Below are positions 16,034-49,342 of a stretch of DNA of 55,076 bases, in pieces. The stretch lies in contig JALSOP010000037.1 of NCBI GenBank assembly GCA_026986435.1, forward strand, positions 1-55,076, in the 5' to 3' direction. Within the stretch, counting starts at the first letter, position 1. Every line of letters begins with the position of its first letter. A program made the translations under genes and the position numbers. The notes below the pieces were generated by a model. It was given only the letters and a program-made list of their open reading frames with translations, searched no databases and was not told where the DNA came from. This DNA comes from Desulfurococcales archaeon. GTDB taxonomy: Archaea > Thermoproteota > Thermoprotei_A > Sulfolobales > NBVN01.

Positions 16034-17068
16034 ATGAAACATTTAGTAGCGGATCTCACGGGTAAAGACTTAATCACGACCCAGGACTGGAGCGTTGAGG
16101 AACTCAGGCTCGCCATAGAACTTGCAAAGGACCTGAAGAGGCGGTACGTACATTACGGAATAGAGGGTATACCGAAGATACTGGATAGGAAGACGTTCTT
16201 CATGCTCTTCTACGCCCCCTCCACCAGGACCAGGGCTGCCTTCGAGGCTGCGATGACCTACCTCGGCGGCCACGCCCAGTACATCGAGGCCAGGATGACC
16301 AGGATGGGTGAGGGTGAGAAGGTCAAGGACGTAGTGACTATGTACGAGAGATACGGGCAGGGCCTCGGCATAAGGATACTTGATAAGGCGATAGACTTCA
16401 AGCACGGCGTTGGCAACGCCATCATAAGAGAGGCCGCCAAGCACATCAGCATACCCGTCATCAACATGGCTGACGACCAGTTCCACCCCACGCAGGGACT
16501 CGCCGACTACATGACCTTCGAGGAGGTCTTCCCGAACCCGAAGGGCAAGAAATACGTCATCATGTGGGCGTACTCCCCGCACGTCAGGGGGCCGTGCAGC
16601 GTCAACGAGGACCTCCTCCTCTTCACGAGGATGGGTGTTGACGTGACCGTGGTCTACCCGCCGGAGTTCGAGCTATACCCGGACATCGTGGAGATGGCTA
16701 AGAAGAACGCTGAAGCGAGTGGCGCTCACCTCGAATTCAGCAACGACTACAAGGAGGCACTGAGCGGCGCCCACGCCGTCTTCCCGAGGAACTGGGCGAC
16801 CAGGCAGCTCCAAGAGCTGGGGTACAGCAAGTTCGCTGAGCAGGAGCTACAGATATACGAGAAGTACAAAGACTGGAAGGTCACTAAGGACCTTATGGAC
16901 CTCATGGACAAGAGCGGTGTTCTGATGCACGTCATGCCCATAATGAGGGGCTACGAGGCCGACGACGAGGTCGTAGACTCACCTAGGTCCGTGCTCTACG
17001 AGCAGGCCGAGAACGGACTCTGGACCAAGGCCGCGGTCCTCGCCCTAACCATGGCCAACATAAGGTGA
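16034..17068 (+). CDS. Carbamoyltransferase of the AOTCase/YgeW (knotted) clade, copy A
   Basis: STRT carbamoyl-P motif, HPTQ, WAYSP loop, FPRNW, HVMP in place of HCLP, EQAENGL. Confidence 0.85.
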   Translation: MKHLVADLTGKDLITTQDWSVEELRLAIELAKDLKRRYVHYGIEGIPKILDRKTFFMLFYAPSTRTRAAFEAAMTYLGGHAQYIEARMTRMGEGEKVKDVVTMYERYGQGLGIRILDKAIDFKHGVGNAIIREAAKHISIPVINMADDQFHPTQGLADYMTFEEVFPNPKGKKYVIMWAYSPHVRGPCSVNEDLLLFTRMGVDVTVVYPPEFELYPDIVEMAKKNAEASGAHLEFSNDYKEALSGAHAVFPRNWATRQLQELGYSKFAEQELQIYEKYKDWKVTKDLMDLMDKSGVLMHVMPIMRGYEADDEVVDSPRSVLYEQAENGLWTKAAVLALTMANIR

Positions 17069-17196
17069 GCGGAATCTTAACATAGATGTGCATAAATGAT
17101 AGGCAAACACAACATAATTTTCTTAACCACCTAAACCAGGCCGCATTAGACTCTCTTTTTAAAAAGCCGACCAATCATTAAGATGAGGTCCTAACC

Positions 17197-18267
17197 ATGG
17201 GACTTCCTTGGTATGTTGGGTACTTCGAGGGTAAGCACTGGCTAACTAACATTGACTACACGCAGGATGACATAAGGAAGGTTATAGAGGCAGCCCTTGA
17301 TCTGAAAAGGAAGTTCAGGAGCCGGGTACCGACCCCCTACCTTAAGGGCAAGACGCTCTTCATGCTGTTCTACAACAGGTCGCTGAGAACCAGAAACAGT
17401 TTCGAGGCCGGCATGTTCCAGCTAGGTGGCCACGCCCACTTCCTCTCCCCGAACGATGTCTACACGCCGACCCTGCCAGAGGACATGGAGCCCTACAAGA
17501 CCGAGGCTATCAGGGACGTGGCCAGGGTGCTCAGCAGGTACGGCGACGGCATAGCCATAAGAATCTACGGTGACGCCGCCAAGTGGCACATTGGCAGGGG
17601 CCACAGGGTCATCGAGGAATTCGCTAAGTGGGCCGAGATACCCGTGCTCAACATGGAGGACGACGTCTACCACCCGTTCCAGGCCCTCGCAGATATTATG
17701 GCGGTCCTGGAGGTGTTGCCAAAGATACAGGGCAAGAAGTTCGTCGTCTCCTACGCCTATAGCGGCGGCCTAAAGCCTCTCGCCGTCCCGCAGAGCGTGA
17801 CCCTAATAGCAGCGATGTTTGGTGCTGAGGTCGTACTGGCTCACCCACCGGGCTTCGAGCTCCAAGACCACATAATCCAGAAGGCTAAGGAGCTCGCCGA
17901 CCAGTACGGCGGCAGCTTCACCATAACCAACAACATGGAGGAGGCCTTCGAGGGCGCCGCCGTGGTCTACCCGAAGGCCTGGTCGCCGAAGGGCTTCTTC
18001 CCGCCGTACAACAGCACTGTGGACAAGGAGGGCGCTAAGGAGTACCAGAAGAAGTTCAAGGACTGGATAGTCACCATGGACCTGCTCGAGAAGGCTGGCA
18101 AGCCGTACTATATGCACTGTGGCCCTGCAGACAGGGGACAGGAGGTCACTGACGAGGTACTCGACAGCTACGAGAGGAGCCTTTACTTCCAGGAGGCGGA
18201 GAACAGGCTCCACGTCCAGAAGGCCGTAATGGCCATGGTCATGGGCTCCAGGTTCCAAGAGTTTTAA
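17197..18267 (+). CDS. Carbamoyltransferase of the AOTCase/YgeW clade, copy B
   Basis: SLRT, HPFQALAD, YAYSGGLKPLAVPQS (cf. YgeW WAYSPSYGKPLSVPQ), VYPKAW, HCGPADRG, EAENRLH. Confidence 0.85.
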   Translation: MGLPWYVGYFEGKHWLTNIDYTQDDIRKVIEAALDLKRKFRSRVPTPYLKGKTLFMLFYNRSLRTRNSFEAGMFQLGGHAHFLSPNDVYTPTLPEDMEPYKTEAIRDVARVLSRYGDGIAIRIYGDAAKWHIGRGHRVIEEFAKWAEIPVLNMEDDVYHPFQALADIMAVLEVLPKIQGKKFVVSYAYSGGLKPLAVPQSVTLIAAMFGAEVVLAHPPGFELQDHIIQKAKELADQYGGSFTITNNMEEAFEGAAVVYPKAWSPKGFFPPYNSTVDKEGAKEYQKKFKDWIVTMDLLEKAGKPYYMHCGPADRGQEVTDEVLDSYERSLYFQEAENRLHVQKAVMAMVMGSRFQEF

Positions 18268-18327: not shown

Positions 18328-19293
18328 ATGGCTGAGAGGAATGAGAAATACGTATTAATCGCTCTGGGAGGCAATGCTTTCCAGACCAAAGGTGAACCAG
18401 GTACTACAGAGAATTATTGGAAGAACGCGTACAAGGCGGCTGAGACTATAGTAAAGATTGTCAAAGAAGGCTACAAAGTGGCGATCACCCATGGAAACGG
18501 CCCCCAGGTCGGTACCATACTTGAGTGGATGGAGAGGTCAAAGGACAAGATACCTCCACTCGCGATGGATATAGCCGGGGCAATGACGCAAGGCTGGCTC
18601 GGCTACCTACTGATGCAGTCGATAGGTAACCTCCTCATTAAGGAGGGTATTAAGGACCACATTAAGGGAGTGGTTGCCATAGTAAATCAGGTGCTCGTAA
18701 GCAAGGACGACCCCGCATGGCAGAACCCGACGAAGTACGTGGGCAGCTACTACACTGAGGAGGAGGCGAAGCGCCTGGCCAAGGAGAAGGGCTGGGTAAT
18801 CAAGCCTGACCCAAGAGGCGGCTGGAGGAGGGTTGTGCCCTCTCCCGACCCCAAGCAGAACATTGAGGTAGAAGCTGTGAAGAAGCTGCTTGATGAGGGC
18901 TGGATAGTGATAGCATCGGGAGGCGGCGGGATACCGGTGATCAAGGAGGAGGACGGCACCCTAAAGGGTGTTGAGGCGGTGATCGACAAGGACCTAGCTG
19001 GCGAAGTCCTAGCGACTGAGCTGGGTGTCGGCCAGTTTATAATCCTTACCGACGTTGACGGTGTCTATCTGAACTTCAAGCAGCCCAACCAGAAGAAGCT
19101 CGACGTGGTGAAGGCCTCAGAGCTCGAGAAGTACTACAAGGAGGGCCACTTCAAGCCAGGCTCCATGGGCCCGAAGGTACTGGCAGCGATCAGGTTCGTG
19201 AGGCACGGCGGTCTCAGGGCGGCCATCGGCCACCTAAAGCAGGGCTATGAAGTCGTTAAGGGCCAGGCAGGAACTACGATACTCCCAGACTAA
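18328..19293 (+). CDS. arcC: Carbamate kinase
   Basis: IALGGNA, THGNGPQVG, PTKYVG, WRRVVPSP, GGGGIPV, EAVIDKD, GSMGPKV. Confidence 0.96.
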   Translation: MAERNEKYVLIALGGNAFQTKGEPGTTENYWKNAYKAAETIVKIVKEGYKVAITHGNGPQVGTILEWMERSKDKIPPLAMDIAGAMTQGWLGYLLMQSIGNLLIKEGIKDHIKGVVAIVNQVLVSKDDPAWQNPTKYVGSYYTEEEAKRLAKEKGWVIKPDPRGGWRRVVPSPDPKQNIEVEAVKKLLDEGWIVIASGGGGIPVIKEEDGTLKGVEAVIDKDLAGEVLATELGVGQFIILTDVDGVYLNFKQPNQKKLDVVKASELEKYYKEGHFKPGSMGPKVLAAIRFVRHGGLRAAIGHLKQGYEVVKGQAGTTILPD

Positions 19294-20903: not shown

Positions 20904-22139
20904 GTGGGGGTGAATAAGGTGGCGGTGGATCTAACCGTAGAGATAGCGGGCCTAAAGTTCAAGAACCCGATCCTAAACTCCGCATGCCCTATATCAAGGG
21001 ATGGCCCAGCCATGGAGAGGCTGGCCGAGGCCGGCATAGGAGGCTTAGTGAGCAAGACCATAGGTGTCGTCGCTGCCAAGGTGCCGAGGCCTCACATGGG
21101 CGTGGTGAACAGAGGCATAATTGACATGGTCGTGCCGACCTACAGAGGAGGGCAGTTCCAGACAAGAGTCAACAAAATAAGGGGTGCGTTCTACGGACTC
21201 CTCAACGCAGAGCTATGGACAGATCTTCCGCCGGAGCAGTGGTTCGAGAAGGAGTTACCCTATGCTAGGAAAGTTGCCGACAAGTTCGGAATACCCCTGA
21301 TTGCCAGTATCGGCTATAAGCCTCACGAGCTGAAGGAACTAGGGCCAAAGGCTGTTAAGGCCGGTGCCGAGGGCATAGAGTTCTCTACCCACTACCTCGG
21401 CTACGACTACAGGCCAGTAATTGAGTCGGCAAAGGCACTGAGGGAGGCTGTGGATGTGCCAATATTCCCGAAGCTCTCACCACACATCTTCGGACTGACC
21501 GAGATGGTCAAAGAGCTTGAGCAGGTCGGTGTAGACGGTATAGTGGCTATAAATACCGTTGGTCCAGCCCTTCACATAGACATTGAGACTGGCAGGCCGT
21601 ATATGGGTGGTCCCTTTGGCCACGGCTGGCTCTCGGGCCCCGCGATAAAGCCCATAGGTGTAGCAATAGTAGCGGAGATAGCGAAGAACACTAAGCTCCC
21701 CGTGATCGGTGTCGGAGGCGTCACTACGCCTGAAGACGTGATCGAGTACATAATGGCCGGTGCCTCGGCGGTGCAAGTCTGTACATCGGTTCTCGTAGAA
21801 GGTCTTGGGGTGATAAAGAAGCTTGTCGAGGGGGTTGAGAAGTGGCTGAAGGAGCACGGCTACTCATCGATAGAGGACATAAAGGGTAAGGCCCTGAAGT
21901 ACCTGACAAAGGAGCCAGGGTGGTGGGAGATAAAGTCGCCGAAGGTTAACGAGGAACTCTGTATCTCGTGCGGGCTCTGTGAGCAGGTCTGTGACTACGA
22001 CGCTGTCCACCTCGTCAACAAGGGCGGTAAACTACTGCCCGTGGTGAACGAGCAGAAGTGCTACGGCTGTGGTCTCTGTACGACGGCCTGCCCGACCAGG
22101 GCGATACACTTCCCGGACGAGTACTGGCCCAAGATATGA
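20904..22139 (+). CDS. DHODH/PreA-like FMN oxidoreductase with C-terminal 2x[4Fe-4S] domain
   Basis: GLKFKNP, LVSKT, LLNAEL, PKLSP, AINT, WLSGPAIKP, GVGG, AVQVCT; CISCGLCEQVC and CYGCGLCTTACP. Confidence 0.85.
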   Translation: MGVNKVAVDLTVEIAGLKFKNPILNSACPISRDGPAMERLAEAGIGGLVSKTIGVVAAKVPRPHMGVVNRGIIDMVVPTYRGGQFQTRVNKIRGAFYGLLNAELWTDLPPEQWFEKELPYARKVADKFGIPLIASIGYKPHELKELGPKAVKAGAEGIEFSTHYLGYDYRPVIESAKALREAVDVPIFPKLSPHIFGLTEMVKELEQVGVDGIVAINTVGPALHIDIETGRPYMGGPFGHGWLSGPAIKPIGVAIVAEIAKNTKLPVIGVGGVTTPEDVIEYIMAGASAVQVCTSVLVEGLGVIKKLVEGVEKWLKEHGYSSIEDIKGKALKYLTKEPGWWEIKSPKVNEELCISCGLCEQVCDYDAVHLVNKGGKLLPVVNEQKCYGCGLCTTACPTRAIHFPDEYWPKI

Positions 22140-22226: not shown

Positions 22227-23504
22227 TTGAGTAGGTTCATTAAGTACCTAAAATGTTCCAGGTGCGGCAAGATCTACCCGTACGAGGATGCCCGGATAAC
22301 GTGTGAAAAGAATGACCTAGGTAGGCTCGACATACACTACGATTACGAAGCGATGAAGGAGGTCGTGACAAAAGAGTACCTGGCCAAGATACCGCTTGAG
22401 AGTATGTGGAAGTACAAAGACCTCATCCCGCCGAAGGACGAGAGCAAGATCGTTAGCCTGGGCGAGGGCGCTACCCCGCTGATAAAGGCAAAGAGGCTGG
22501 CGGAGGAGCTCGGCCTGAAGAACCTCTACCTGAAGGACGAGACCAGGAACCCTACGGGCTCGTTTAAGGACAGGGGCATGTCGGTGGCGGTGAGCGTTGC
22601 TAAGGAGTTCGGCTTTACTAAGGCAGTAACAGCGTCCAGCGGTAATGCCGCCGCTGCACTAGCGGCTTATGGTGCTAGGGCCGGGATCGACGTCATAGCA
22701 TTCGTGATAGAGCAGGCTGGCTACGGCAAGATAGCCCAGCTCCTCTTCTACGGAGCTAAGGTGTTCAGGGTGCGCGGACTCGGTAGGGAGGACCCGACCG
22801 TCAAGCTGATGAGGATGGTGCACGAGAGGTTCGGCTTCTACATGGCCCCGAGTTTCGGCCCCTTCAACCCGTACCAGATCGAGGGACCCAAGACGATCTC
22901 ATACGAGATCGTGGAGCAGCTGGGCTGGAGGAGCCCTGACTGGGTCTTCGTCCCTGTTGGGGCGGCATCACTCCTCACAGGCGTCTGGAAGGGGTTCAGG
23001 GACTTTAGGGAGCTAGGCATAATACCTGACCTACCCCACCTCTTCGCTGTTCAATCAACGGGTAACCCGCCCTTTGTGAGGGCGTTCAAGGAAGGGCAGG
23101 ACCCATTCAACATAAAGCCTTGGGATCATCCTCACACGATAGCGTGGGGGCTGGAGGACCCGTACCCCTGGGACGGTGATGCAGGCATAGCGGCTCTTAA
23201 GGAAACCAAGGGTGACGCCGAGGAGGTCCCAGACGAACTAATACTGAAGGCAATGAAGCTCCTGGCCTCCAGGGAGGGTGTGTTCGCGGAGCCCTCCGGC
23301 GCGGCCGGCCTCGCTGGCCTCATGGCCGCCCTCGAGGATGGGAGGGTTGATAAGGATGAGGAGGTAGTGGTTCTCGTCACTGGCCACGGGCTCAAAGACC
23401 CAGATGTGGTTAAGGAGAGCGCGGGTGATGCTCCGACGATCAGTGCTGACCTCGAGGAGTTCAAGTTCGTTCTGAGCAAGGCCTACGGTATCAAGATTCA
23501 GTGA
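22227..23504 (+). CDS. Threonine-synthase-like PLP enzyme (fold type II)
   Basis: N-terminal CxxC, SLGEGATPL, NPTGSFKDRG (PLP Lys), ASSGN, EPSGAA, TGHGLKD. Confidence 0.85.
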   Translation: MSRFIKYLKCSRCGKIYPYEDARITCEKNDLGRLDIHYDYEAMKEVVTKEYLAKIPLESMWKYKDLIPPKDESKIVSLGEGATPLIKAKRLAEELGLKNLYLKDETRNPTGSFKDRGMSVAVSVAKEFGFTKAVTASSGNAAAALAAYGARAGIDVIAFVIEQAGYGKIAQLLFYGAKVFRVRGLGREDPTVKLMRMVHERFGFYMAPSFGPFNPYQIEGPKTISYEIVEQLGWRSPDWVFVPVGAASLLTGVWKGFRDFRELGIIPDLPHLFAVQSTGNPPFVRAFKEGQDPFNIKPWDHPHTIAWGLEDPYPWDGDAGIAALKETKGDAEEVPDELILKAMKLLASREGVFAEPSGAAGLAGLMAALEDGRVDKDEEVVVLVTGHGLKDPDVVKESAGDAPTISADLEEFKFVLSKAYGIKIQ

Positions 23505-23599: not shown

Positions 23600-24589
23600 A
23601 TGAGGACTTTGGTGAAGGGCAATGACCACGGAGTAATATCGGTTGGCCTAGTGGATATAGATGGTGTCGAGGACGGAAGGATCCGCATAGTCACCCACGT
23701 CCACTCGGACCACACAGTGGGCTTAAGTAAGAGCACCAACATATCAGAGAAAATCGTTGCTACCCCTCTCACGCTCGAGTGGTTGCCTGTGCTTGGCCAT
23801 AAACTACCGCGACATAAGCTACTACCCCTTGATTACGGTGAGGAGGTTAGGGTGGGTGACCTGAAAATAACGTTCTATGAGTCAGTACACATTCCCGGCA
23901 CGGCGCAGGTGATGATAGAGTTTCCAGACGGTATAACACTTGCTTACACAAGCGATTTCAAAAAGCCTGGGGAGGGTACCCCAATACTCAGCCCGGACGT
24001 GCTGGTCATCGACGCCGTCTATGGGAGGCCGAACTACGTGAGGGAGTTCGATGACATTATCGACACGATCCTCGCCGACGCGGTGAGAGAGCTGCTGGCA
24101 ACCGGGCCCGTGTACCTCTACGGGTATCATGGCAAAATACAGGAGGTAATGGAGGTGCTTCGTAGGGAGGGTGTCGACGCCCCCTTCATACTCCCGTACA
24201 AGCAGTACCAGCTGGCGAGAATAGCTGAGAGGCACGGTCACAGGTTCGGTGACTATGTTCTCCAGGGAACGGATGAGGCTGAGGACATAATCAGGGATGG
24301 GTGGTTCATCTACTTCGCCCACGTCAACTCAAAGAGGAGACTGAATGGTGTTATGGGTAACCACCTTATCTTGAGCGGATGGGAATTCAGCAGACCTTAC
24401 AAGAGGATAGGGCGGAATAAGTGGCTCGTTGCCTTCAGCGATCACGCGGACTTCACGGGGCTCCTTAGGTATGTGGAGGAGAGCAGGCCTAAGCTATTGC
24501 TGGTGAACTTGCCGAGGAGCACGGGAGGGATAGAATTTGCTGAATACGTCAGGAAAAAATTTGGGATAGAGGCCCTACTACTCCCCTAA
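23600..24589 (+). CDS. Metallo-beta-lactamase/beta-CASP-like nuclease (COG1236-like)
   Basis: THVHSDH, HIPG, YTSDF, DAVYG, FSDHADF. Confidence 0.85.
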   Translation: MRTLVKGNDHGVISVGLVDIDGVEDGRIRIVTHVHSDHTVGLSKSTNISEKIVATPLTLEWLPVLGHKLPRHKLLPLDYGEEVRVGDLKITFYESVHIPGTAQVMIEFPDGITLAYTSDFKKPGEGTPILSPDVLVIDAVYGRPNYVREFDDIIDTILADAVRELLATGPVYLYGYHGKIQEVMEVLRREGVDAPFILPYKQYQLARIAERHGHRFGDYVLQGTDEAEDIIRDGWFIYFAHVNSKRRLNGVMGNHLILSGWEFSRPYKRIGRNKWLVAFSDHADFTGLLRYVEESRPKLLLVNLPRSTGGIEFAEYVRKKFGIEALLLP

Positions 24590-25573
24590 CTCGGACTCCC
24601 TTAGCTCATAGGGTTCCTTGATGAAGGATTCAGTCAGCGTCAAGCCGTACTCCTCTAGTAGTATCAGGATTGCTGCCTGCGGAGGAATGACCCCCTTCTC
24701 GGTTATTATTGCGTCTATGTACTCCGGCGGCGTCACGTCGAACACCGGGTTGTAGACCTTAACCTCTGGGTTCCTGTTGAGCCACTCCTCCGTCACTATC
24801 TCGAGTGGTGACCTGACCTCAATCGGTACCAGCTCCCCTATCACGGTCTGGGGGCTGAATTTGTAGGTCTCGCTGGCGACATACATACGTACCCTGGCCT
24901 CCTTAGCAGCCAGGGCAACCATAGATGTGCCGATCTTGTTAATGACAGCACCATTGGCAGCTATTGTGTCAGCGCCGACAACCACCTTGTTCACTTTCTT
25001 CATAAAGTACCTCACTGAAGAGTCCGGTATGAGGATGACGTCAAGGCCTGCATCCGCTAGGGCCTTGGCAGTAATTAGGCCCTGCATCTTGGGCCTCGTC
25101 TCCTTCACGTACACCCTGTGCACCTTGCCCTGGTTATGGGCCGTAGCGATGACCGACACGGCGGCGGTGCTGTGGCAATGTGTCATCACTACATCGCCGT
25201 TTTCCAATCTTTTAGCACCAAGTTCCCCGATTATTCTTACAGCGTTAAGTGAGTACTCGATGAACTCTTCAGCAGCGTTAACGACTGCGCGGACAGCCTC
25301 CTCGAGGGATGATGCCCCGGATCTTTTTAGTCTATTCATAACGTAAGCGACGGCGTTGGGTAGCGAGACAGCTGTTGGTCTGGCTGACCTCACGAACTCA
25401 GCTATTCTTTCCATGTACGCCATGAAGTCTTTCAGGTTCCTTCCCTTGAACTCCTCGGCAGCTATGGCCAGTGCCCTGGCCCCTGCCCTGGCTATTCTGC
25501 CAGCGCCCCTGATCCTCATTTCCTTTATGTCGAGCCAGATCTTCCTTACACCCTCGGGTACATACTCGCTCAT
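24578..25573 (-). CDS. Ribose-1,5-bisphosphate isomerase (eIF2B-like family)
   Basis: MRIRGAGRIAR, RPTAVSLPNA, catalytic THCHS, ETRP, VGADTI, NKIGT, ETYKF, FDVTPPEY. Confidence 0.9.
   Translation of the reverse strand: MSEYVPEGVRKIWLDIKEMRIRGAGRIARAGARALAIAAEEFKGRNLKDFMAYMERIAEFVRSARPTAVSLPNAVAYVMNRLKRSGASSLEEAVRAVVNAAEEFIEYSLNAVRIIGELGAKRLENGDVVMTHCHSTAAVSVIATAHNQGKVHRVYVKETRPKMQGLITAKALADAGLDVILIPDSSVRYFMKKVNKVVVGADTIAANGAVINKIGTSMVALAAKEARVRMYVASETYKFSPQTVIGELVPIEVRSPLEIVTEEWLNRNPEVKVYNPVFDVTPPEYIDAIITEKGVIPPQAAILILLEEYGLTLTESFIKEPYELRESELGE
24698..24742. repeat. 45-bp exact direct repeat, copy 1 (copy 2 at 25681-25725)
   Basis: ctcggttattattgcgtctatgtactccggcggcgtcacgtcgaa is identical in both eIF2B-like paralogs. 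Confidence 0.9.
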
Positions 25574-26562
25574 AGGGACCGCACCTCCTTGAGAAGTTCC
25601 TTAATGCTCTTCACTCTTGGCGGAAGCCCATACTTCTCCTTAATGAGTATAGGTACGGCCTGTGGGGCTATGAGCCCGTGCTCGGTTATTATTGCGTCTA
25701 TGTACTCCGGCGGCGTCACGTCGAATATTGGCTCCCTAACAATCACCTTTCCAGTGAGTTCCTCCATTCTATTCCGAGGGATTATGAGCTCGGGATCGTT
25801 CAGGACTATGCCCTCAATCAGTTCTCCGAAGACTGTCTCTATACCGAACTTGTAGGTGCCAGCAGCTACTAGCACCCTGGTCCTCGCCTCTTTCGCTGCC
25901 AGGGCTATTGCTGATGTACCTGCCTTATTGACTATCGCGCCATTCGCGGCTACGGCGTCGGCACCGACTATGACCTTGCTTATCTTTTTCATCACGAACC
26001 TTACGGCAGAGTCAACGATGAGTGTTGTGTCAATTCCCATCTTAGCTATTTTTTCAGCGGCAACCAAGCCCTCTCCTAGGGGTCTCGACTCGGTGACGTA
26101 CACACTGAAGTTCTTACCCTCTCTTAAGGCTTCCTCAAATATTCTTATGACTGATGTGCTGTACGAGTGAGTAAGGATGACGTCACCATTAACTATTCTT
26201 TTTGCACCAACCCTAGCCACGATTTTCTTTGTGTGCTCTATCTCCTCATTTATCTTGTCTATTATTGCGGCGACCTTCTCAATGGCTGCCTCGACACCAC
26301 TTCTCTTAGCCTCATTCACGAACCCGATTAGGAACTCCCTGAGAAGATTCGACATAACCATGGACGTGGGCCTTGCATCTATTATCGTCTCTACCCAGCT
26401 AGGGAGGTACTTGACGAAATCCCTCCCACATACCTTGACAACGTCTGAGAGGAATGAGAAGGCAGCGTAGGCTGCCTCCGTGGACCCGAGTATTCTGCCA
26501 TGCCTGAGGTCGGAAGCTAGGGCATCGACTCTAGTAGCTATTTCCCTACACTGTTGTGACAT
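25570..26562 (-). CDS. eIF2B/R15P-isomerase-like paralog lacking the catalytic Cys
   Basis: RPTS, THSYS, ESRP, VGADAV, NKAGT, TYKF, FDVTPPEY. Confidence 0.85.
   Translation of the reverse strand: MSQQCREIATRVDALASDLRHGRILGSTEAAYAAFSFLSDVVKVCGRDFVKYLPSWVETIIDARPTSMVMSNLLREFLIGFVNEAKRSGVEAAIEKVAAIIDKINEEIEHTKKIVARVGAKRIVNGDVILTHSYSTSVIRIFEEALREGKNFSVYVTESRPLGEGLVAAEKIAKMGIDTTLIVDSAVRFVMKKISKVIVGADAVAANGAIVNKAGTSAIALAAKEARTRVLVAAGTYKFGIETVFGELIEGIVLNDPELIIPRNRMEELTGKVIVREPIFDVTPPEYIDAIITEHGLIAPQAVPILIKEKYGLPPRVKSIKELLKEVRSL
25681..25725. repeat. 45-bp exact direct repeat, copy 2
   Basis: Same sequence as 24698-24742. Confidence 0.9.
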
Positions 26563-30735: not shown

Positions 30736-32592
30736 TCAGTCCCTTAGATCAACTAAGTCTCTCAGCCCCTCGTACACGAAGCCTAGGCCGAGCCTCTCCA
30801 GAGTTGACTTCTTCGGCGCGCCTCTCTCGTCCCAGCCTCTTAGCTCGTAGTACTTGCTCAGCATCCTGTCGTAGCCGTCCCTGTCGAGCTTGGCGCCAGC
30901 CAGCGGCCCCTTGGTTAGGGGCTCCGTGAACCACCTCTCAGGCGGGTAGTCCATGTGCCTGCCCCAACCCCTTCCCTCGGCGGCGTATTCCCTCACCCAG
31001 AACGCCCTAATGAGTGTGTAGACTCTCTCCGCCAACTTATGGAGGTCGTCCCATGTGAAGCTCACTCCTGTCGCCGCTTTCAAGAACTTCGGGTAGTAGT
31101 CGAGGTTGAGGCCGAGCTCCACCCACGGCAGCCTGCACGTTACGAGGGACTCGAATACTGCTCCCCTAACGTTCTGCATCCAAACGAGATTCTCTACCTT
31201 CTCATCGGTGTACTTATCCCTACCCATCTTTATCTCCAGCGATATGAACCATGCATCCTTGTGGTGGGCCCCTATGGAGCTCGTGCCGTAGGCCAGAGCC
31301 ATGCCTGGTGCGGCGTGGCAGTCGTATGCCGAGATCTCCAGGCCCTTAACCTGCATGGCGAAGGCCATGGCGCCGTTCCCGAGCTTCTCGGCGGCGGCCC
31401 TGGTGCCCTCCGCCATCAGGTTCCCGAGTTCCCCTCTCCTGTACGCTATGTCCTCCGTCAACTGTACGGCGGCGTCGAAGTCGCCCCACTCAATCCCGTC
31501 CTTTATGAGGCCTTTCTCGGTAGCCTCCATGGCGAAGGCTATTGAGGAGCCGAGGCTTATTGTATCTAGTCCCAGGTCGTCCGCGAGTTTATTCAGGTGG
31601 GACACCTTATTGAGGTCCCCTATACCTATGTTGGAGCCGAGCATCGCGACGTTCTCGTAGTCGAGCTCTGCCCTGGCCTTAGTGCTGCCTACCTGGTACT
31701 CGACAATGTTTCCGCATGGCATGTTGCAGTTGGGACACCCCTTCTGCGCCACCTTCATCTTCTCCATGGTGTAGCCGTCGATCCCGCTGGCGAAGTCGTA
31801 GACGCCCTCACGGAAGTTGTAAGTGGGTAGCACGGAGTTCTTGTTAGACCACTCAATGGTCATCATGGTGCCCTGCCTGATCCAGAAGTCGTAGCCATCC
31901 GCCTCTTTCACCACCCTGTAGGCCTCAGCCCCAAGCCGTACGAGCTCGGCCTGGTCAGCGGGCTTCGGAAGCTCCTTGCACCCCTTAATCACGATGGTCT
32001 TCAGCTTCTTTGAGCCCATCACCGCACCCATGCCTGGCCTGCCGCCCGAGCGGCCGAACTCGCTTATAACTGTGGCGAACTTGACCAAGTTCTCCCCTGC
32101 CGGGCCTATGTACAGGGCTCCGGCGTTCTTTCCGTACTCGGCGTAGAGCTTCGGCTCGAGGTCATGGACACGCATACCCCATATGTCCTCCGCGGGCTCG
32201 ATGGATGCCTTACCGCACTCAACAACCAGCTTTACGGGCTTGTCGGAAGCGCCCGTAATCACTAGAGCATCATGTCCCGCCTTCCTAAGCTCCACAGCTG
32301 CCCTAGTACCTATGTTGCCGTCGCCGTATCCGTGAGTGAGGGGTGATTTGGCGGCGATCACCATCTTACCCGAGGAGGGCAGGGGGTATCCCGTGAGCGG
32401 CCCCACAGCGAATATGAGCACGTTGTCAGGGCTCAGCGGATCAGTCCCTGGTTTCACGAGGTCCCAGAGGAGCCTGATCGCCAGGCCCCTGCCGCCAAGG
32501 TAGTTCAGCAAGGTTTCCTTGTCGAGACTTACCTCGGTGATCTTTCTTGTTGTCAGGTTCACTAGGAGATATTTCCCATTCCATCCAAACAT
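30736..32592 (-). CDS. Tungsten-dependent aldehyde:ferredoxin oxidoreductase, FOR-like
   Basis: YLGGRGL, KSPLT.GYGDGNIG, GRPGMGAVMGSKKLK, CPNCNMPC, DYENVAMLG, DDLGLDTIS, AHHKDAW. Confidence 0.93.
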   Translation of the reverse strand: MFGWNGKYLLVNLTTRKITEVSLDKETLLNYLGGRGLAIRLLWDLVKPGTDPLSPDNVLIFAVGPLTGYPLPSSGKMVIAAKSPLTHGYGDGNIGTRAAVELRKAGHDALVITGASDKPVKLVVECGKASIEPAEDIWGMRVHDLEPKLYAEYGKNAGALYIGPAGENLVKFATVISEFGRSGGRPGMGAVMGSKKLKTIVIKGCKELPKPADQAELVRLGAEAYRVVKEADGYDFWIRQGTMMTIEWSNKNSVLPTYNFREGVYDFASGIDGYTMEKMKVAQKGCPNCNMPCGNIVEYQVGSTKARAELDYENVAMLGSNIGIGDLNKVSHLNKLADDLGLDTISLGSSIAFAMEATEKGLIKDGIEWGDFDAAVQLTEDIAYRRGELGNLMAEGTRAAAEKLGNGAMAFAMQVKGLEISAYDCHAAPGMALAYGTSSIGAHHKDAWFISLEIKMGRDKYTDEKVENLVWMQNVRGAVFESLVTCRLPWVELGLNLDYYPKFLKAATGVSFTWDDLHKLAERVYTLIRAFWVREYAAEGRGWGRHMDYPPERWFTEPLTKGPLAGAKLDRDGYDRMLSKYYELRGWDERGAPKKSTLERLGLGFVYEGLRDLVDLRD

Positions 32593-32698
32593 AGCGGATT
32601 CCCTTATTGTCTCACGGGAAACGAATTAAACATTAGTGAAGATCAGCCAACATATATTTTACCTGGATCTGCGGTAGTTAATTAATTGGGATAATGTA

Positions 32699-33373
32699 AT
32701 GCCTAAGGTCCCCACCAAGCTTGTTAGCTGGGACGACATCGTCGAGTGGTCGAGGGGGCTAGCAAGAAAGATTAAGGATTCCGGTTATAGACCGGACGTG
32801 ATCGTAGCTATAGCCAGGGGAGGCTTCGTTCCTGCCAGGCTTCTCTGTGACTTCCTCGACGTCGAGAACCTCCTCTCGATCCAGTCACAGCACTGGACCG
32901 AGGCGGCCAAGGTAGCTGACAGAGCCATAATCAAGTTCCCGTATAAGGTAGAACTAACTGGTATGAAGGTGCTGATCGTCGACGACATAGTCGACACAGG
33001 CGAGTCACTGATCCTGGCCAGGGACTACATCATGAGGGAGTGGAAGCCCGAGGAAGTGAGGATAGCAGCTCTGCAGTGGATATCGCCAGTGGCTAAGCTG
33101 AGACCTGACTACTACTTCATCGAGATTAAGGAATGGATATGGTTCCAGTACCCGTGGACCAGGCTAGAGGACACTTACCAGTTCATAAAGAGGATGCTGT
33201 CTGAGGAGGGCAAGTACAAGAAAGAGTGGAGTTATGAGGAACTAAAAACTAAGTTCATGGAGTGGTACGACATCGACGTCGGGGATGAGTACTTCAGGGA
33301 CGCCATAGAAATGCTTGTAGAGAAGGGGTTCCTGTCCAGGATCGATAAGGACAGGTTCCGTATTAAGGAGTGA
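32699..33373 (+). CDS. Purine phosphoribosyltransferase (archaeal HGPRT/Gpt-like)
   Basis: SWDDI, VAIARGG.VPAR, VLIVDDIVDTGESL, WIWFQYPW. Confidence 0.88.
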   Translation: MPKVPTKLVSWDDIVEWSRGLARKIKDSGYRPDVIVAIARGGFVPARLLCDFLDVENLLSIQSQHWTEAAKVADRAIIKFPYKVELTGMKVLIVDDIVDTGESLILARDYIMREWKPEEVRIAALQWISPVAKLRPDYYFIEIKEWIWFQYPWTRLEDTYQFIKRMLSEEGKYKKEWSYEELKTKFMEWYDIDVGDEYFRDAIEMLVEKGFLSRIDKDRFRIKE

Positions 33374-33398
33374 GAGTCACTAAGGAGAGAGGCATTAT

Positions 33399-33944
33399 TT
33401 ACTGCGATACCACGCCCTCCGCCTTGGCCTCAGCAGCTTTCCTAGCCATCTCTAGGATCTTCCTGGCCTCTCCGCTAGCACTCACGAATAGTTCATCGCT
33501 GCTTAGGTACATCCCTCTCGAGGATATCTCGGTAGCGTTCTGGGCAATGTCGTCTAGTACTACCGTGAACTCGCTTAGCTCCTCAGCCCCCTCCCTCAGC
33601 TCTCTCAGCACTTCGGCAACCAGCTTAGCGACTGGTGAGATGTAGGATAGGAGCTTCGCCGTCAGCACTGTCTCTATCCTTAGGACCAGTATCTCGACGG
33701 CTACCTCAACCTGCGTAAGCCTGGTGATCAGGGACCTCAGCGAAGCTATCTCCTGCGCGTATGACGCCCTCAGGTTAGGATTCTCCGTAATCGCTAGCCT
33801 TTCCTCGTAGCGCATGATCCTCTCCTCTAACCTCCTCCTAGATAGGCTTACCCACCGCAGGAACTGCTTGAGGTCTATAAGGAGTCTCGCTAGATTCTGC
33901 CTCAACTCCTTTGGGTCTGCGCGCTTCCTCCTAGCAAATAACAC
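33399..33944 (-). CDS. ESCRT-III/Snf7 (CdvB-like) paralog
   Basis: Helical hairpin with ASYAQEIASLR, VEILVLRIET, SPVA, and EARKILEMAR.AAE C-terminal helix. Confidence 0.72.
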   Translation of the reverse strand: MLFARRKRADPKELRQNLARLLIDLKQFLRWVSLSRRRLEERIMRYEERLAITENPNLRASYAQEIASLRSLITRLTQVEVAVEILVLRIETVLTAKLLSYISPVAKLVAEVLRELREGAEELSEFTVVLDDIAQNATEISSRGMYLSSDELFVSASGEARKILEMARKAAEAKAEGVVSQ

Positions 33945-34071
33945 AACACGCCCCTGGATAATACTCGGGTATTACCAAGGCGAAAAAGCCCCCACTGATT
34001 AATACCCCACCGTATTACGAGAAAGTACCTGCAAAACATCCTTAAATCCCCCCGAACCACACACTTATTGG

Positions 34072-34199
34072 CCGCCGGTAGCTCAGCGGCAGAGCGCCCG
34101 GCTGTAGTCAGCCCCGGAGGGTACAGGAACAACCGCCTGCGGGCGGGCCCTCCGGCAGAAACCGGGTGGTCGGGGGTTCGATTCCCCCCCGGCGGACCA
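34072..34199 (+). tRNA. tRNA-Tyr(GTA) with canonical 37/38 intron (34108-34160)
   Basis: C1:G72 acceptor CCGCCGG/CCGGCGG, CCCGG CTGTAG|intron|A CCGGG, T arm GGGGG TTCGATT CCCCC, ACCA. Confidence 0.95.
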
Positions 34200-34324
34200 C
34201 CCTATTATCAAGTGGTAGCATAGTAACGCCCACAACTAACCCCGAATGAGAGCCATTATTGCTCAGTCCTAACGTAACATGTGTTTTTCATTGTTGACTG
34301 CTCCTTAACTAATGGTGGGCTTAC

Positions 34325-35704
34325 TTGGCAGACCTAATGATAAAGGCGAAATTCATTATCCCGGTCAGGCCCTCAAAGAAGATCATACGCGATGGCGCCA
34401 TCGTCGTTGAGGACGAGCGGATAGTGTTTGTTGGTAAGCGCCACGTGGCCGAGGAAAAATATAGTGCTGAGGAGGTGATTGAGGCTAATCACCACGTAGC
34501 TATTCCGGGACTGGTTAATGCTCACAACCACCTCTTTCAGTCGATAATCAAGAACATAGCCATCGATATGGTGTTGATTGACTGGTTAAGGAAGGCCATA
34601 CACCCGATACTTGCGTCGTTCCGTGACTTGGACTTCTACTACTCCACGAAGTGGGGCGTGATAGAGAACATAAAGTCGGGTGTCACCACGCTCATAGAGA
34701 ACCACTACGGTCCCAAGGGATACGACTACGTCGCTAAGGGGCTCATGGAGTCAGGCATAAGGACAGTCCTTGCCAGGGGCATATACGAGCTCAACGTGCT
34801 ACTCGATGAGCTCAAGGAGGAGCCGAAAGCGGCGATCTCCCACACTGAGTACCTCATACAGAAGTATCACGGAAAGAACGACGGAAAAATGATGGTTGCC
34901 GTCGCGCCGATGCATCCATACAATTCGAGCAAGGATTTACTCCTCATGGCCAAGGAACTCTCTGATAAGTATGGGGTGCCTTACCACACTCATACGGCCG
35001 AGTCCGTGAAGGACCAGGAGCTGGTGAAGGAGCTTCACGGAAATACAGATGTCGCGCTACTGTACGACCTCGGGATCCTTGGCCCAAGATACCACGCAGT
35101 ACACTCTGTGCAGGTGTCTGAGGAAGAAGTACTTATGTTGGCTAAGACAGGTGCCCACGTAATACACAACCCAGAGAGCAACCTAATAATAGGTTCAGGC
35201 ATAGCACCGATACCCGACTTCCTCAAAGCAGGCGTTAACGTAGCCCTCGGCACAGACGGTGCGGGAAGTAACAATAACCAAGACATGATAGAGGCCATGA
35301 GGTTTGCGGTGCTCATACACAGGGGGGCTAGGAAGCACCCGAACATAGTAACTGCTTGGGACGCCCTAGAGATGGCCACAATTAATGGTGCGAGGGCCCT
35401 CGGGCTAGAGAATGAGATAGGTTCGCTGGAGCCTGGTAAGAAAGCAGACATAACAATCATAGACCTAGAAAGCCCGAGCATAGCCCTTGCACATGACCCA
35501 CTCGGCTCGATAGTCTACTGTGCAAACGCCGCCGACGTCGACACAGTCGTAGTTGATGGTAAGGTGGTCATGAGGAATAGAAAGGTTCTCACAATAGACG
35601 AGGAGAAGGCCAAAGAAGAGGCGTGGAAGGTCGCGCTGGACCTCCTCGACAGGGCCAGGCAGAAATTCGATATGAAGTTCCCCTACGAAGAATTCATCGA
35701 GTGA
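34325..35704 (+). CDS. Amidohydrolase, nucleobase/nucleoside deaminase family (COG0402)
   Basis: PGLVNAHNHLFQS, SGVTT, HTHTAES, HNPESN, LGTDG.GSNN, MATINGA, GSLEPGKKAD. Confidence 0.9.
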   Translation: MADLMIKAKFIIPVRPSKKIIRDGAIVVEDERIVFVGKRHVAEEKYSAEEVIEANHHVAIPGLVNAHNHLFQSIIKNIAIDMVLIDWLRKAIHPILASFRDLDFYYSTKWGVIENIKSGVTTLIENHYGPKGYDYVAKGLMESGIRTVLARGIYELNVLLDELKEEPKAAISHTEYLIQKYHGKNDGKMMVAVAPMHPYNSSKDLLLMAKELSDKYGVPYHTHTAESVKDQELVKELHGNTDVALLYDLGILGPRYHAVHSVQVSEEEVLMLAKTGAHVIHNPESNLIIGSGIAPIPDFLKAGVNVALGTDGAGSNNNQDMIEAMRFAVLIHRGARKHPNIVTAWDALEMATINGARALGLENEIGSLEPGKKADITIIDLESPSIALAHDPLGSIVYCANAADVDTVVVDGKVVMRNRKVLTIDEEKAKEEAWKVALDLLDRARQKFDMKFPYEEFIE

Positions 35705-47093: not shown

Positions 47094-47867
47094 ATGGGGT
47101 ATAAAAGTGTAAAAGCAATTTTTAGTATTGATAAAGCAGTGGTCGACCATTTACTTGAGATGCTTAAAGATAAAGAATTTATTATTTCTTCTTTGCCTTG
47201 TGTTGTTGCGAGATTTAGTAATAAAATTCTTCTACGTTTTTCAAGGCTATTTTTATTTAGAGTTGATGATGTTTATTCTTTAGATATCGAACAAATAGAT
47301 AAAGGCACGGTGATCAAGCTTTTTGGCGAAAAAAGTACAGTTACCTTAATATTTCGTTTATTAGAGAACGATAAGATAGAATATGTAGGGGAATATAATG
47401 GACCTAAGCAATGGGTCGTTGTTCCGTGTCTCGAGGACATTGGTAGATCCGTTATTAAGGATGTTGCTGAAGAAGCTCGAAGAAGATCTGTGGAAAGATC
47501 CCATACGGCTGCAGGAGCCGATTATTCTGCACTACTAGCCAAGGTGTCATGGGTCTCGAAACTATTGTTGCGTTCGGTTCTAATTAAGTCAGAAATCGTA
47601 GCTATAAATAAAGGGAATCTCATATCGTATATAGAGGATCTAGCGTCTGAGGGAGTATTGTCAAAATATAAAACGGTATATGTATCGGGCACAAGCGACA
47701 TAGGCTCGTTTAGGATGCTTTTCATTAGTGGTGAGCTAGTTGGTGTTTATTCTCTTATTCGAGGTAAAGAGTATGTGGGCGACGATAAAGTCCTTAACGA
47801 ATTTGAGGGTTTCACACGTATTCGGGTTTATGGTTCAAATGTTGAACCTTCCATAGATGGGGGGTGA
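47094..47867 (+). CDS. Hypothetical two-domain protein (possible SRPBCC/START-like N-terminus)
   Basis: 257-aa AT-rich ORF; fold guess from the alpha/beta pattern only. Confidence 0.6.
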   Translation: MGYKSVKAIFSIDKAVVDHLLEMLKDKEFIISSLPCVVARFSNKILLRFSRLFLFRVDDVYSLDIEQIDKGTVIKLFGEKSTVTLIFRLLENDKIEYVGEYNGPKQWVVVPCLEDIGRSVIKDVAEEARRRSVERSHTAAGADYSALLAKVSWVSKLLLRSVLIKSEIVAINKGNLISYIEDLASEGVLSKYKTVYVSGTSDIGSFRMLFISGELVGVYSLIRGKEYVGDDKVLNEFEGFTRIRVYGSNVEPSIDGG

Positions 47868-47872
47868 TTTGA

Positions 47873-48631
47873 ATGGGTATACGCGTACATAGACCCTACA
47901 TAATTGCTGAAAAGGATGACCACAGGTTCATATGGCTAGGACTTGATGAGGCAGAAGCTGAAAGAGGGATACTTACAAATCAGTACTTAATAGTTGACAA
48001 AAACGAAGGATTACTTATTGACCCGGGAGGACAATACGTATTCGAGAGAATATACAGGAATGTCAGTGAGTTTATTGAACCGGAGAATATAAAAGCTGTA
48101 TTTTTCTCTCATCAAGACCCGGATGTTGTCGGCTCATTGATAATGATTTCGGACTTTTTCCCTAATGCTGAGATTTATGTCTCAAAATTATGGACAAGAT
48201 TTCTGCCTCATCTTGGTGTCATAGAAGGTGTTGTAATGAAGGAAATACCTGATGAAGGAACAGATATCATCGTAGGAAAAACATCTCTAAAAGCGATACC
48301 TGCACATTATCTACACTCTCCAGGTAACTTCAGTTTATATGATCCGAAGGTTAAAGTATTGTTCAGTGGTGACATAGGAGCAGCTGTATTTCCTGAGGGA
48401 ACATGGTATCTATTCGTAGATGATTTCAAAACCCATGTCAAGTATATGGAAGGATTTCATAAGAGGTATATACCAACAAAGAGGGCCCTAGACATCTGGT
48501 TAAATAAAATTAAGGAATTAGACATTAATATAATAGCCCCTCAGCACGGAGCTATATTTGCAGAAAAGAATGTCAAAAAATTCCTGGACTGGCTTCGCAA
48601 TCTCGATAACGTCGGTTTAGACTCTATATGA
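47873..48631 (+). CDS. Oxygen-binding di-iron protein (ODP)-like MBL-fold protein
   Basis: NQYLI, LIDPGG, SHQDPD, LWTRFLPH, AHYLHSPGNF, FSGDIG, FHKRY, IAPQHG; no flavodoxin domain. Confidence 0.85.
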   Translation: MGIRVHRPYIIAEKDDHRFIWLGLDEAEAERGILTNQYLIVDKNEGLLIDPGGQYVFERIYRNVSEFIEPENIKAVFFSHQDPDVVGSLIMISDFFPNAEIYVSKLWTRFLPHLGVIEGVVMKEIPDEGTDIIVGKTSLKAIPAHYLHSPGNFSLYDPKVKVLFSGDIGAAVFPEGTWYLFVDDFKTHVKYMEGFHKRYIPTKRALDIWLNKIKELDINIIAPQHGAIFAEKNVKKFLDWLRNLDNVGLDSI

Positions 48632-48660
48632 CAAGTTGGAGGTGATCAAGACTGAATGAG

Positions 48661-49125
48661 ATGATAAAGAATTTGATCGAAAAAGCATGGGATATTGAAA
48701 ATAAATCAATAATGTCATATATGGGTTGGCTAAAAATATTAACAAATATAGGAATAAACTATGAACAAATATTAAATTTTATAGTAGATATAATCGAAGA
48801 TAGTTTGATTCATAAACGTCTTGTAGAGGCACTGGCCGGCGGGCTCAACGATATTGACACCATAAGAGAAGAATTATATAAGTTGAAAATTCAGACATCA
48901 TCTAAAGAGAATACCTGTGATAACGAATTAATAGAATTTATAAAAAGTATGATAAGAGAGCATGATATAATAGAGAAAGATGCGGCAAAAATATATAGAA
49001 AGTTGGCAAGCTCAGTTGACAGTGATATCGCCAGAAGGGTCTTTGAACTCATCGCCGAAGATGAGACAAAACACGATGAATACATGAAGAAACTAGATAG
49101 ATTAGTGGATAAACTGTGCTCTTAA
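48661..49125 (+). CDS. Ferritin/rubrerythrin-like four-helix-bundle protein
   Basis: DIE..S...Y, EDSLIH, IEKDAAKIY, EDETKH di-iron-type motifs. Confidence 0.75.
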   Translation: MIKNLIEKAWDIENKSIMSYMGWLKILTNIGINYEQILNFIVDIIEDSLIHKRLVEALAGGLNDIDTIREELYKLKIQTSSKENTCDNELIEFIKSMIREHDIIEKDAAKIYRKLASSVDSDIARRVFELIAEDETKHDEYMKKLDRLVDKLCS

Positions 49126-49157
49126 AGACAATGTAGTTCCTGAAGAGAATGATAAGG

Positions 49158-49234
49158 TGGAGCCGCCGGCGGGATTCGAACCCGCGACCACCGGCTTACA
49201 AGGCCGGCGCTCTACCCGGCTGAGCTACGGCGGC
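49158..49234 (-). tRNA. tRNA-Thr(TGT)
   Basis: GCCGCCGTAGCTCAGCCGGGTAGAGCGCCGGCCTTGTAAGCCGGTGGTCGCGGGTTCGAATCCCGCCGGCGGCTCCA. Confidence 0.97.
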
Positions 49235-49342
49235 CCAAAAGACTGAATCTTAGGGCCTCTATTAATTTTTTTCAATGAGACCTAACCTTTATTAGTCGTG
49301 TTGATAAGGAATTAACAAGATATAATTAATCTAGTTAAGTCA

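Follow-up and report, generated by a model that had tools for sequence, protein, structure and literature searches.

The closest described relative of the system analyzed here is the YgeW pathway of purine breakdown. In Escherichia coli and clostridia, urate undergoes reduction to 2,8-dioxopurine and is dearomatized by YgfK or UacX, SsnA and HyuA open the rings to give 2,3-diureidopropionate, the first ureido group is cut by the carbamoyltransferase YgeW (yielding carbamoyl phosphate, CP, and then ATP with YqeA) or by the hydrolase UacY, the second by the hydrolase YgeY, and YgeX acts last (Li 2025, PMC12507026; Liu 2025, bioRxiv 10.1101/2025.04.24.650524). The variants described so far deliver one CP (YgeW plus YgeY) or none (UacY plus YgeY), and YgeW together with carbamate kinase forms ATP from diureidopropionate (Liu 2025). 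Li 2025 places the YgeW cut at the 2-ureido group, with albizziin as the product, and Liu 2025 at the 3-ureido group, giving 3-amino-2-ureidopropionate, a disagreement that a commentary calls unresolved (PMC12990295). In this work, we analyzed two tandem carbamoyltransferase genes, A and B, in a 55,076-nucleotide stretch (the window; contig JALSOP010000037.1, positions 1 to 55,076, assembly GCA_026986435.1) of a heat-loving Desulfurococcales archaeon. On balance, and with modest confidence, we favor a reading in which B would carry out the YgeW step and A would replace YgeY, so that each purine ring would yield two CP and, through them, two ATP; judged from sequence, the pair would form a new version of the known purine pathway with one probably new enzyme activity.

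16034..17068, + strand: carbamoyltransferase A, 344 aa, intact open reading frame (ORF); subfamily without prior description
17197..18267, + strand: carbamoyltransferase B, 356 aa, intact ORF; subfamily without prior description

Ureide phosphorolysis coupled to carbamate kinase for ATP also operates in the arginine and agmatine deiminase routes, through catabolic ornithine carbamoyltransferase (OTCase) or PTCase together with ArcC, but these give one CP per substrate and use unknotted enzymes. Ureidoglycine carbamoyltransferase (UGTCase) is likewise purine-catabolic and acts on a ureido amino acid to regain CP; however, it resembles aspartate carbamoyltransferase (ATCase), carries an H[ST]LP motif and belongs to the allantoin route (Barba 2013, PMC4016543), and A and B are not ATCase-like, at 24-25% identity to the ATCase of their host. 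Archaea do not appear in the accessible main text of Li 2025 (PMC12507026) or Liu 2025 (bioRxiv 10.1101/2025.04.24.650524), and a literature search, with most subscription journals and paper supplements outside its reach, returned nothing that describes the pathway in archaea, with two transferases or with a second phosphorolytic cut. The SsnA network files of Li 2025 might contain archaeal nodes.

Family placement and active sites of A and B

A and B lie on the same strand, 128 bp apart, and are 38% identical. The Pfam domains OTCace_N and OTCace, found in both, together with their motifs and model matches place them in the transcarbamylase superfamily. The motifs quoted in the sequence-only reading of this DNA (STRT, WAYS, FPRNW and HVMP in A; SLRT, YAYS, YPKAW and HCGPADRG in B) and the absence of DxxxSMG and HCLP from both sequences were confirmed. 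Part of their interpretation needs amending. FPRNW and YPKAW do lie on the substrate side, but SxRT and HxxP bind CP and not the second substrate (Shi 2015, PMC4581275). HCLP, taken as OTCase-specific, also occurs in N-acetylornithine carbamoyltransferase (AOTCase), with H[AVC]LP in YTCase (Barba 2013, Table 1, PMC4016543), and the (W/Y)AYS loop, called YgeW/AOTCase-type, matches YgeW (TWAYS) but not AOTCase (TWTYH).

Neither protein reached any NCBIfam cut-off. On the AOTCase model NF003384, A scored 202 and B 268 bits against 288, on the OTCase models 194-197 and 235-236 bits against 281 and 306, and on the YgeW models TIGR03316 and NF005538 both scored 129-142 bits against 453 and 500. In the tree, the A and B clades (each supported 100/99) stand apart from the OTCase and AOTCase clades (each 100/99-100). 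The OTCase family is further set aside by the missing SMG, and the AOTCase family by the catabolic neighbors of the pair and, for A, by the lack of equivalents of E144, K252, W77 and R322. Compared with YgeW, which has about 396 aa and additional terminal helices, both proteins lack the C-terminal extension, are about 40-50 aa shorter and share 29-30% identity, and there are two of them. A recent tandem duplication was considered and rejected, as sisterhood of the window's A and B failed the approximately unbiased (AU) test (p 7e-7); the two genes represent old, separate subfamilies and no local duplicate. We also rejected an ATCase identity for A, suggested by an ENG helix motif, at 25% identity, with no RxQ motif and with the Gly variable within the A clade.

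The best structural match of both models is AOTCase (ArgF' of Xanthomonas, PDB 3kzk), with which A and B share 32% and 36% identity. The A model (predicted local distance difference test (pLDDT) 93) matched knotted AOTCase with Z 43.3, a root mean square deviation (rmsd) of 1.5 and 317 aligned residues, YgeW (2yfk) with Z 42.0, rmsd 1.9 and 326 residues, and OTCase (1a1s) at a lower Z of 40.8, rmsd 2.1 and 313 residues. In Foldseek, the B model (pLDDT 83) favored AOTCase chains narrowly, with query-normalized TM-scores of 0.81-0.82 for these and 0.73-0.78 for OTCases; by E-value, the second rank went to OTCase 1a1s. By alignment, A and B possess the extended 120s loop and a Pro-containing loop, and their best structural matches are knotted enzymes; in knotted transcarbamylases, the trefoil knot passes through the proline-rich loop.

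The two pockets were compared across 120 listed homologues each, with identities of 56-95% for A and 71-99% for B. The superfamily residues (SxRT, the beta4 Arg, the His and Gln of HPxQ and the His and Pro of HxxP) are present in all 120 of both sets; the Leu of HxLP is replaced by Gly in B. In A, the CP motifs are intact (S63-T64-R65-T66, R114, H151 and Q154, with S63-T66, R114, H151 and Q154 in 120/120), and the second-substrate pocket is remodelled and arginine-rich, with A146, R185, R252, a hydrophobic residue at 304 and R90 in the 80s loop; A146, R252 and R90 are fixed in all 120 homologues and R185 in 119. Ala and Arg thus occupy the positions of AOTCase E144 and K252, and G328 stands where AOTCase has R322. 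The B pocket comprises E154 (Q160 in YgeW, E144 in AOTCase), K193, K260, D312 and E316, each in 120/120, with R337 at the CP-side K/R position (120/120) and Y89 in a long 80s loop. B shares R322 and the E144/K252 pair with AOTCase, and likewise has an aromatic residue in its long 80s loop and an extended 120s loop. With YgeW it shares the motifs KPL(A/S)VPQ, YPK(A/S)W and HCxPAD and the positions K203, K270, D334 and E344: the residues Q160, K203, K270, D334 and E344, suggested from the structure to contact the second substrate (Shi 2015, PMC4581275), read E, K, K, D and E in B and A, R, R, M and E in A. Taken together, B resembles YgeW and A looks active but re-specialized.

Codon use in both genes is strongly biased to C/G endings, as had been claimed: GC content at third positions (GC3) is 0.805 in A and 0.801 in B, where the genome averages 0.69 (sd 0.08), in the 96th-97th percentile of 834 long ORFs, and the codon adaptation index lies in the 97th-98th percentile of 1253 ORFs. 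The high expression drawn from this bias follows only weakly, because the index relies on four reference genes and the ATCase gene scores above A and B. Among other searches, ESM Atlas returned generic OTCace clusters only, a 50%-cluster profile search returned outgroups without gene context, plasmids yielded no bacterial protein closely related to the pair (best identity 39.7%), and a sigma-70 promoter and terminator scan, a model ill-suited to an archaeon, gave chance-level counts.

Gene neighborhood and co-inheritance across archaea

Downstream of B, all on the same strand and with gaps of 60, 215, 6 and 87 bp from B onward, are:

18328..19293, + strand: carbamate kinase (ArcC/YqeA); TIGR00746, 386.6 bits against a cut-off of 358.25; the only tblastn match in the genome
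19509..20897, + strand: SsnA-like amidohydrolase, predicted to open the six-membered ring; SsnA is the best family, 334 bits against a cut-off of 444
20904..22139, + strand: UacX/PreA-like flavin mononucleotide (FMN) reductase with C-terminal 4Fe-4S clusters, predicted to dearomatize the ring; PreA is the best family, 210 bits against a cut-off of 335; DHO_dh and Fer4 domains
22227..23504, + strand: threonine-synthase-like (ThrC-like) pyridoxal phosphate (PLP) enzyme, predicted stand-in for the diaminopropionate ammonia-lyase YgeX

As in the YgeW pathway known from E. coli, Clostridium sporogenes and C. difficile, a catabolic transferase is accompanied by carbamate kinase, SsnA, a UacX-type reductase and a PLP enzyme; unlike it, the system is archaeal, YgeY and DpaL are absent, and the PLP enzymes are ThrC-like and CysK-like. 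The ThrC-like protein reads NPYQIEG at the site where solved threonine synthases read NPYRIEG or NPYRLEG, and the Arg of this NPYR motif binds the substrate phosphate in threonine synthase.

The source genome (G000, 93.6% complete) encodes elsewhere a true OTCase (434 bits against a cut-off of 306), a true ATCase and LysW-type arginine genes, as well as adenine deaminases, Xdh large subunits and cyclic amidohydrolases (two of each) and four M20 peptidases. Both Xdh and a spare hydantoinase/allantoinase-like gene score below the curated cut-offs, and the single PF07969 protein matched no NCBIfam family at E<=1e-20. Homologues of the Xdh, YgfK/UacX, SsnA and HyuA of the 2,8-dioxopurine cluster and a carbamate kinase are all present, some elsewhere in the genome and some below cut-off, and neither the YgeY/UacY hydrolase nor the YgeX/DpaL lyase of that cluster was found above cut-off. 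The DpaL family TIGR01747 had no match in the genome, neither it nor the TIGR01879 carbamoylase passed the cut-off in this genome and four complete relatives, and no other CP-yielding catabolism was found in the same five genomes, as arginine deiminase (PF02274) had no match there.

We examined co-inheritance in 401 Thermoproteota genomes, with orthologue thresholds of E<1e-150 for A and E<1e-195 for B. A was found in 39 and B in 40, B being present in all 39 A genomes; the lone genome with B only is 86% complete. An SsnA orthologue occurs in 37 of the 39 A+B genomes and in none of 29 others, a ThrC-like orthologue in 39/39 against 1/13. The UacX orthologue is less regular (16/39): the other 23 have no PreA/UacX match at E<=1e-30, and the two of them examined (L188 and L190) carry an F420-type reductase. 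Among the best 80 A loci in GTDB, drawn from Desulfurococcales, Bathyarchaeia, Caldarchaeales, Nitrososphaerales, Hadarchaeota and Asgard, B lies within 10 kb, in the fetched stretch, at 37 (adjacent on the same strand at 11, all Desulfurococcales, spaced on the same strand at 6 and on the opposite strand at 20). The remaining 43 have no B in the fetched stretch, and B is encoded elsewhere in the genome for 35 of them (34 at E<1e-140 and one contig-end fragment), giving 72/80 in total; in complete genomes the distance between A and B can be 26-640 kb. The tandem order is a local arrangement. Across 161 stretches (160 loci and the window), we counted ThrC-like genes in 84, carbamate kinase in 70, SsnA/deaminase-type genes in 55, UacX in 28, Xdh in 25 and hydantoinase in 19.

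The distribution of YgeY is complementary. None of 68 genomes, all 39 A+B genomes included, passed the YgeY cut-off (TIGR03526), and M20 peptidases are present in only 3 of the 160 loci. Of 151 Asgard genomes, 14 carry A and B side by side on opposite strands, with YgeY in 0/14 and an SsnA-family match in 13/14. Another 25 have a more divergent two-gene set, with an SsnA-family match in 25/25 and no YgeY in 22/25; in the eight whose motifs were checked, each set consists of one A-type and one B-type gene. Conversely, in Asgard G513, G468 and G446 a true YgeY (about 630 bits) adjoins a single transferase with a YgeW-type KP..VP/HxLPAD pocket, and A is absent. A Clostridium plasmid has the same layout (dpaL-hydA-ygeY-transferase).

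Proposed sequential phosphorolysis and its alternatives

In the favored reading, purines would be converted to urate and 2,8-dioxopurine by Xdh encoded elsewhere in the genome, reduced by the UacX-like enzyme and opened by the SsnA-like enzyme and then by a hydantoinase, also encoded elsewhere, to 2,3-diureidopropionate. B would first phosphorolyze one ureido group to CP, leaving 3-amino-2-ureidopropionate or albizziin, and A would then release the remaining group as CP in place of the hydrolase YgeY, the two acting in turn as independent trimers. The neighboring carbamate kinase would convert two CP into two ATP per purine ring, and the ThrC-like enzyme would break 2,3-diaminopropionate down to pyruvate and ammonia, pulling the sequence forward. 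Substrates, order and intermediate are predicted here from the genes, families, residues and co-occurrence described above. The scheme is backed by near-complete A-B pairing, by the purine context, by the way the pair and true YgeY exclude each other, and by two separate, strongly conserved active sites. The sequence-only reading had proposed the same core (two phosphorolytic steps on a bis-ureide, with two CP and two ATP through ArcC), and as a candidate mechanism it fits nearly all of the comparative data. It had named as fatal that both enzymes be ArgF-type, or that one be inactive and not co-conserved; neither was found, as the host encodes a separate OTCase and A is co-inherited, its core CP motifs unchanged throughout.

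That B would act before A appears somewhat the better order, because Li and Liu both have YgeW cut the diureide, the pocket of B is that of YgeW and A occurs where YgeY is absent. The opposite order is also conceivable: the A pocket, short of two residues that are acidic or polar, would fit a substrate without a free amine, B adjoins PLP genes, and the genome G410 has A without B.

Several observations weigh against the favored scheme. The genomes counted are related by descent, and the counts describe a pattern and not independent events. The CP-side arginine is lost in the A clade (G in 101, N in 14 and R in 5 of 120), although ATCases likewise lack it (Shi 2015, PMC4581275); B departs from YgeW at D124, S200 and L331; and, on the question whether B is closer to YgeW than A is, the tree rejects neither a clade of B with YgeW types (AU p 0.20) nor one of A with B (0.28). 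A YgeY-related M20 peptidase is present in the source genome (251 bits against the NF009555 cut-off of 321), such proteins exceed 180 bits in 5/39 A+B genomes, this one included, and also occur in the purine loci L036 and L094; none of them belongs to the true YgeY clade, but they could hydrolyze a ureido group. YgeY passes the cut-off in 3/25 of the divergent two-gene Asgard genomes. In G410, A and SsnA occur without B and together with an M20 peptidase just above the YgeY cut-off, a gene set in keeping with A rather than B as the counterpart of YgeW, and in G514 a lone A-type gene stands beside a nitrilase-family hydrolase. Finally, the CysK-family PLP gene near B has no role in the sequential scheme.

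This last gene, together with a pyrimidine-type sister clade, both overlooked in the sequence-only reading, is the source of the most serious alternative, which we nevertheless regard as unlikely. Here, one transferase alone would act on the purine diureide (one ATP), the other ureido group would leave without ATP, either as urea through beta-elimination or replacement of albizziin by a CysK- or ThrC-like PLP enzyme or through an M20 or other hydrolase, and the second transferase would serve another ureide, such as pyrimidine-derived beta-ureidopropionate or the other stereoisomer. Cysteine synthases can link urea and albizziin. Within the source genome and the fetched loci, to which CysK-family orthology was scoped, a CysK/CBS-family gene with at least 40% identity to the G000 copy occurs in 40/160 loci and lies within 30 bp of B in 27 of those 40, and two PLP enzymes are more than a sequential scheme requires. 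Moreover, the sister clade, with its B-like pocket, occurs in preT-preA-dihydropyrimidinase-transferase-carbamate kinase loci, so that ureide phosphorolysis in pyrimidine breakdown looks real. Nevertheless, the 23 of 39 A+B genomes without a PreA/UacX match still keep both A and B, A and B follow SsnA whereas the pyrimidine-type clade is a separate branch in genomes without SsnA, and near-perfect A-B pairing with exclusion of true YgeY is more simply explained by one pathway.

A second alternative, which the sequence-only reading had itself raised and to which we give still less weight, is that A and B form an obligate heterotrimer (A2B or AB2), lending the 80s loop across active sites to perform one or both steps. 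Co-inheritance is near-perfect, the codon bias of the two genes is matched and active sites in the family are shared between subunits (Shi 2015, PMC4581275). An A2B model also passed, with a score of 0.80 against 0.06 for the best of three controls, contact agreement of at least 83% and partner pLDDT of at least 88, a mark reached by 116/157 solved complexes and 2/215 mismatched pairs. However, homotrimer structures exist for this family, so that a pass was to be expected and indicates likeness rather than binding; A and B have 10/21 and 10/18 modelled interface residues in common, no more than B and the host OTCase (11/21 and 10/18). The characterized members are all homotrimer-based (Shi 2015, PMC4581275). 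The heteromer becomes less likely because B is adjacent on the same strand at only 11/80 A loci and because lone genes exist, A-type in G410, G514, G495, G443 and G490 and B-type in G357, G326 and G242, mostly genomes of unknown or partial completeness. The weakest proposal, that one or both of A and B serve biosynthesis as ArgF-type enzymes (OTCase or AOTCase), draws on the database label "ornithine carbamoyltransferase" carried by their relatives, on the 268 bits of B on the AOTCase model (cut-off 288) and on B E154 and K260 matching AOTCase E144 and K252, but is very improbable given the true OTCase (434 against 306 bits), ATCase and LysW-type arginine genes elsewhere in the genome, the missing SMG loop, the position of A and B outside the OTCase and AOTCase clades and their catabolic neighbors, carbamate kinase among them.

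Returning to sequential phosphorolysis by B and A, we extend it only tentatively to a wider claim: archaea of the Desulfurococcales, Caldarchaeales, Bathyarchaeia, Hadarchaeota and Asgard may carry out a fully phosphorolytic purine fermentation in which two ancient regiospecific transferases would double the gut-bacterial ATP yield, A would be a new activity, and a third sister clade would do the same for pyrimidine-derived beta-ureidopropionate. If true, this would bring in an enzyme activity not described before, would give a pathway that was worked out in gut bacteria as late as 2025 a version yielding two ATP, and would extend that pathway to many archaea whose genes carry the misnomer "ornithine carbamoyltransferase". 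Specialization of A and B would also let each YgeW regiochemistry be tested alone, which bears on the 2025 dispute as it is set out in the commentary (PMC12990295). A orthologues are recorded in cultured Desulfurococcus species, so that tests of growth and ATP yield look feasible.

Related clusters and other features of the window

The CysK/CBS-family PLP enzyme travels with the cluster, often directly behind B, and was also seen at L036:16242-17207 and L128:7618-8664, with the motifs A(T/S)TGN and H(E/K)IEGIGDG; in the source genome the gene is split over two contigs (C123:8373-9071 and C31:4338-4751).

The third transferase clade, about 40% identical to B, was found at L175:8025-15201 and in L176, L177, L178 and L179 (G320, G224, G136, G032 and G172). 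Its loci contain a preT-like gene, preA, dihydropyrimidinase, the transferase and a class III aminotransferase, with carbamate kinase nearby in 4/5, and SsnA orthologues are absent from the four searched of these five genomes. By its gene context the clade looks like a beta-ureidopropionate carbamoyltransferase, which would make ATP from pyrimidines; a catabolic beta-alanine transcarbamylase is listed as still unproven by Shi 2015 (PMC4581275). On a Pusillibacter plasmid (L197:2316-7333), preA, an amidohydrolase, a divergent carbamoyltransferase and a LarA-family racemase, with a nitrilase-family gene further along, make up what we take from its gene content to be another undescribed ureide-phosphorolysis cluster.

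In five Asgard loci (L211, L212, L213, L223 and L224), the neighbors of a divergent A/B pair are a penicillin-amidase-like gene and an oligopeptide-type ABC transporter, not ssnA. Three other Asgard transferases (L216:6785-9659, L217 and L226, from G449, G479 and G509) belong to the AOTCase clade, that of L216 scoring 383 bits against the cut-off of 288. They adjoin a LysK-like peptidase gene, and in L216 also an amino-acid-kinase gene, and possibly carbamoylate carrier-bound or acylated ornithine.

Within the window, positions 30736-35704, 7-12 kb downstream, encode a tungsten-type aldehyde:ferredoxin oxidoreductase (AOR), a purine phosphoribosyltransferase-like gene and a second deaminase-type amidohydrolase. 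AOR-family genes occur in 14 related loci, some showing no Xdh, and an enzyme of this family may perform the purine redox step. At 24578-26562, on the - strand, two tandem ribose-1,5-bisphosphate isomerase/eIF-2B-like paralogues, one over and one under the TIGR00511 cut-off, stand with a PfkB kinase beside the cluster, and nucleoside salvage may feed the purine route. Three genes at 47094-50290, one of them TFIIB, have a GC3 of 0.30-0.42 against the genome mean of 0.69 and are possibly a recently acquired island.

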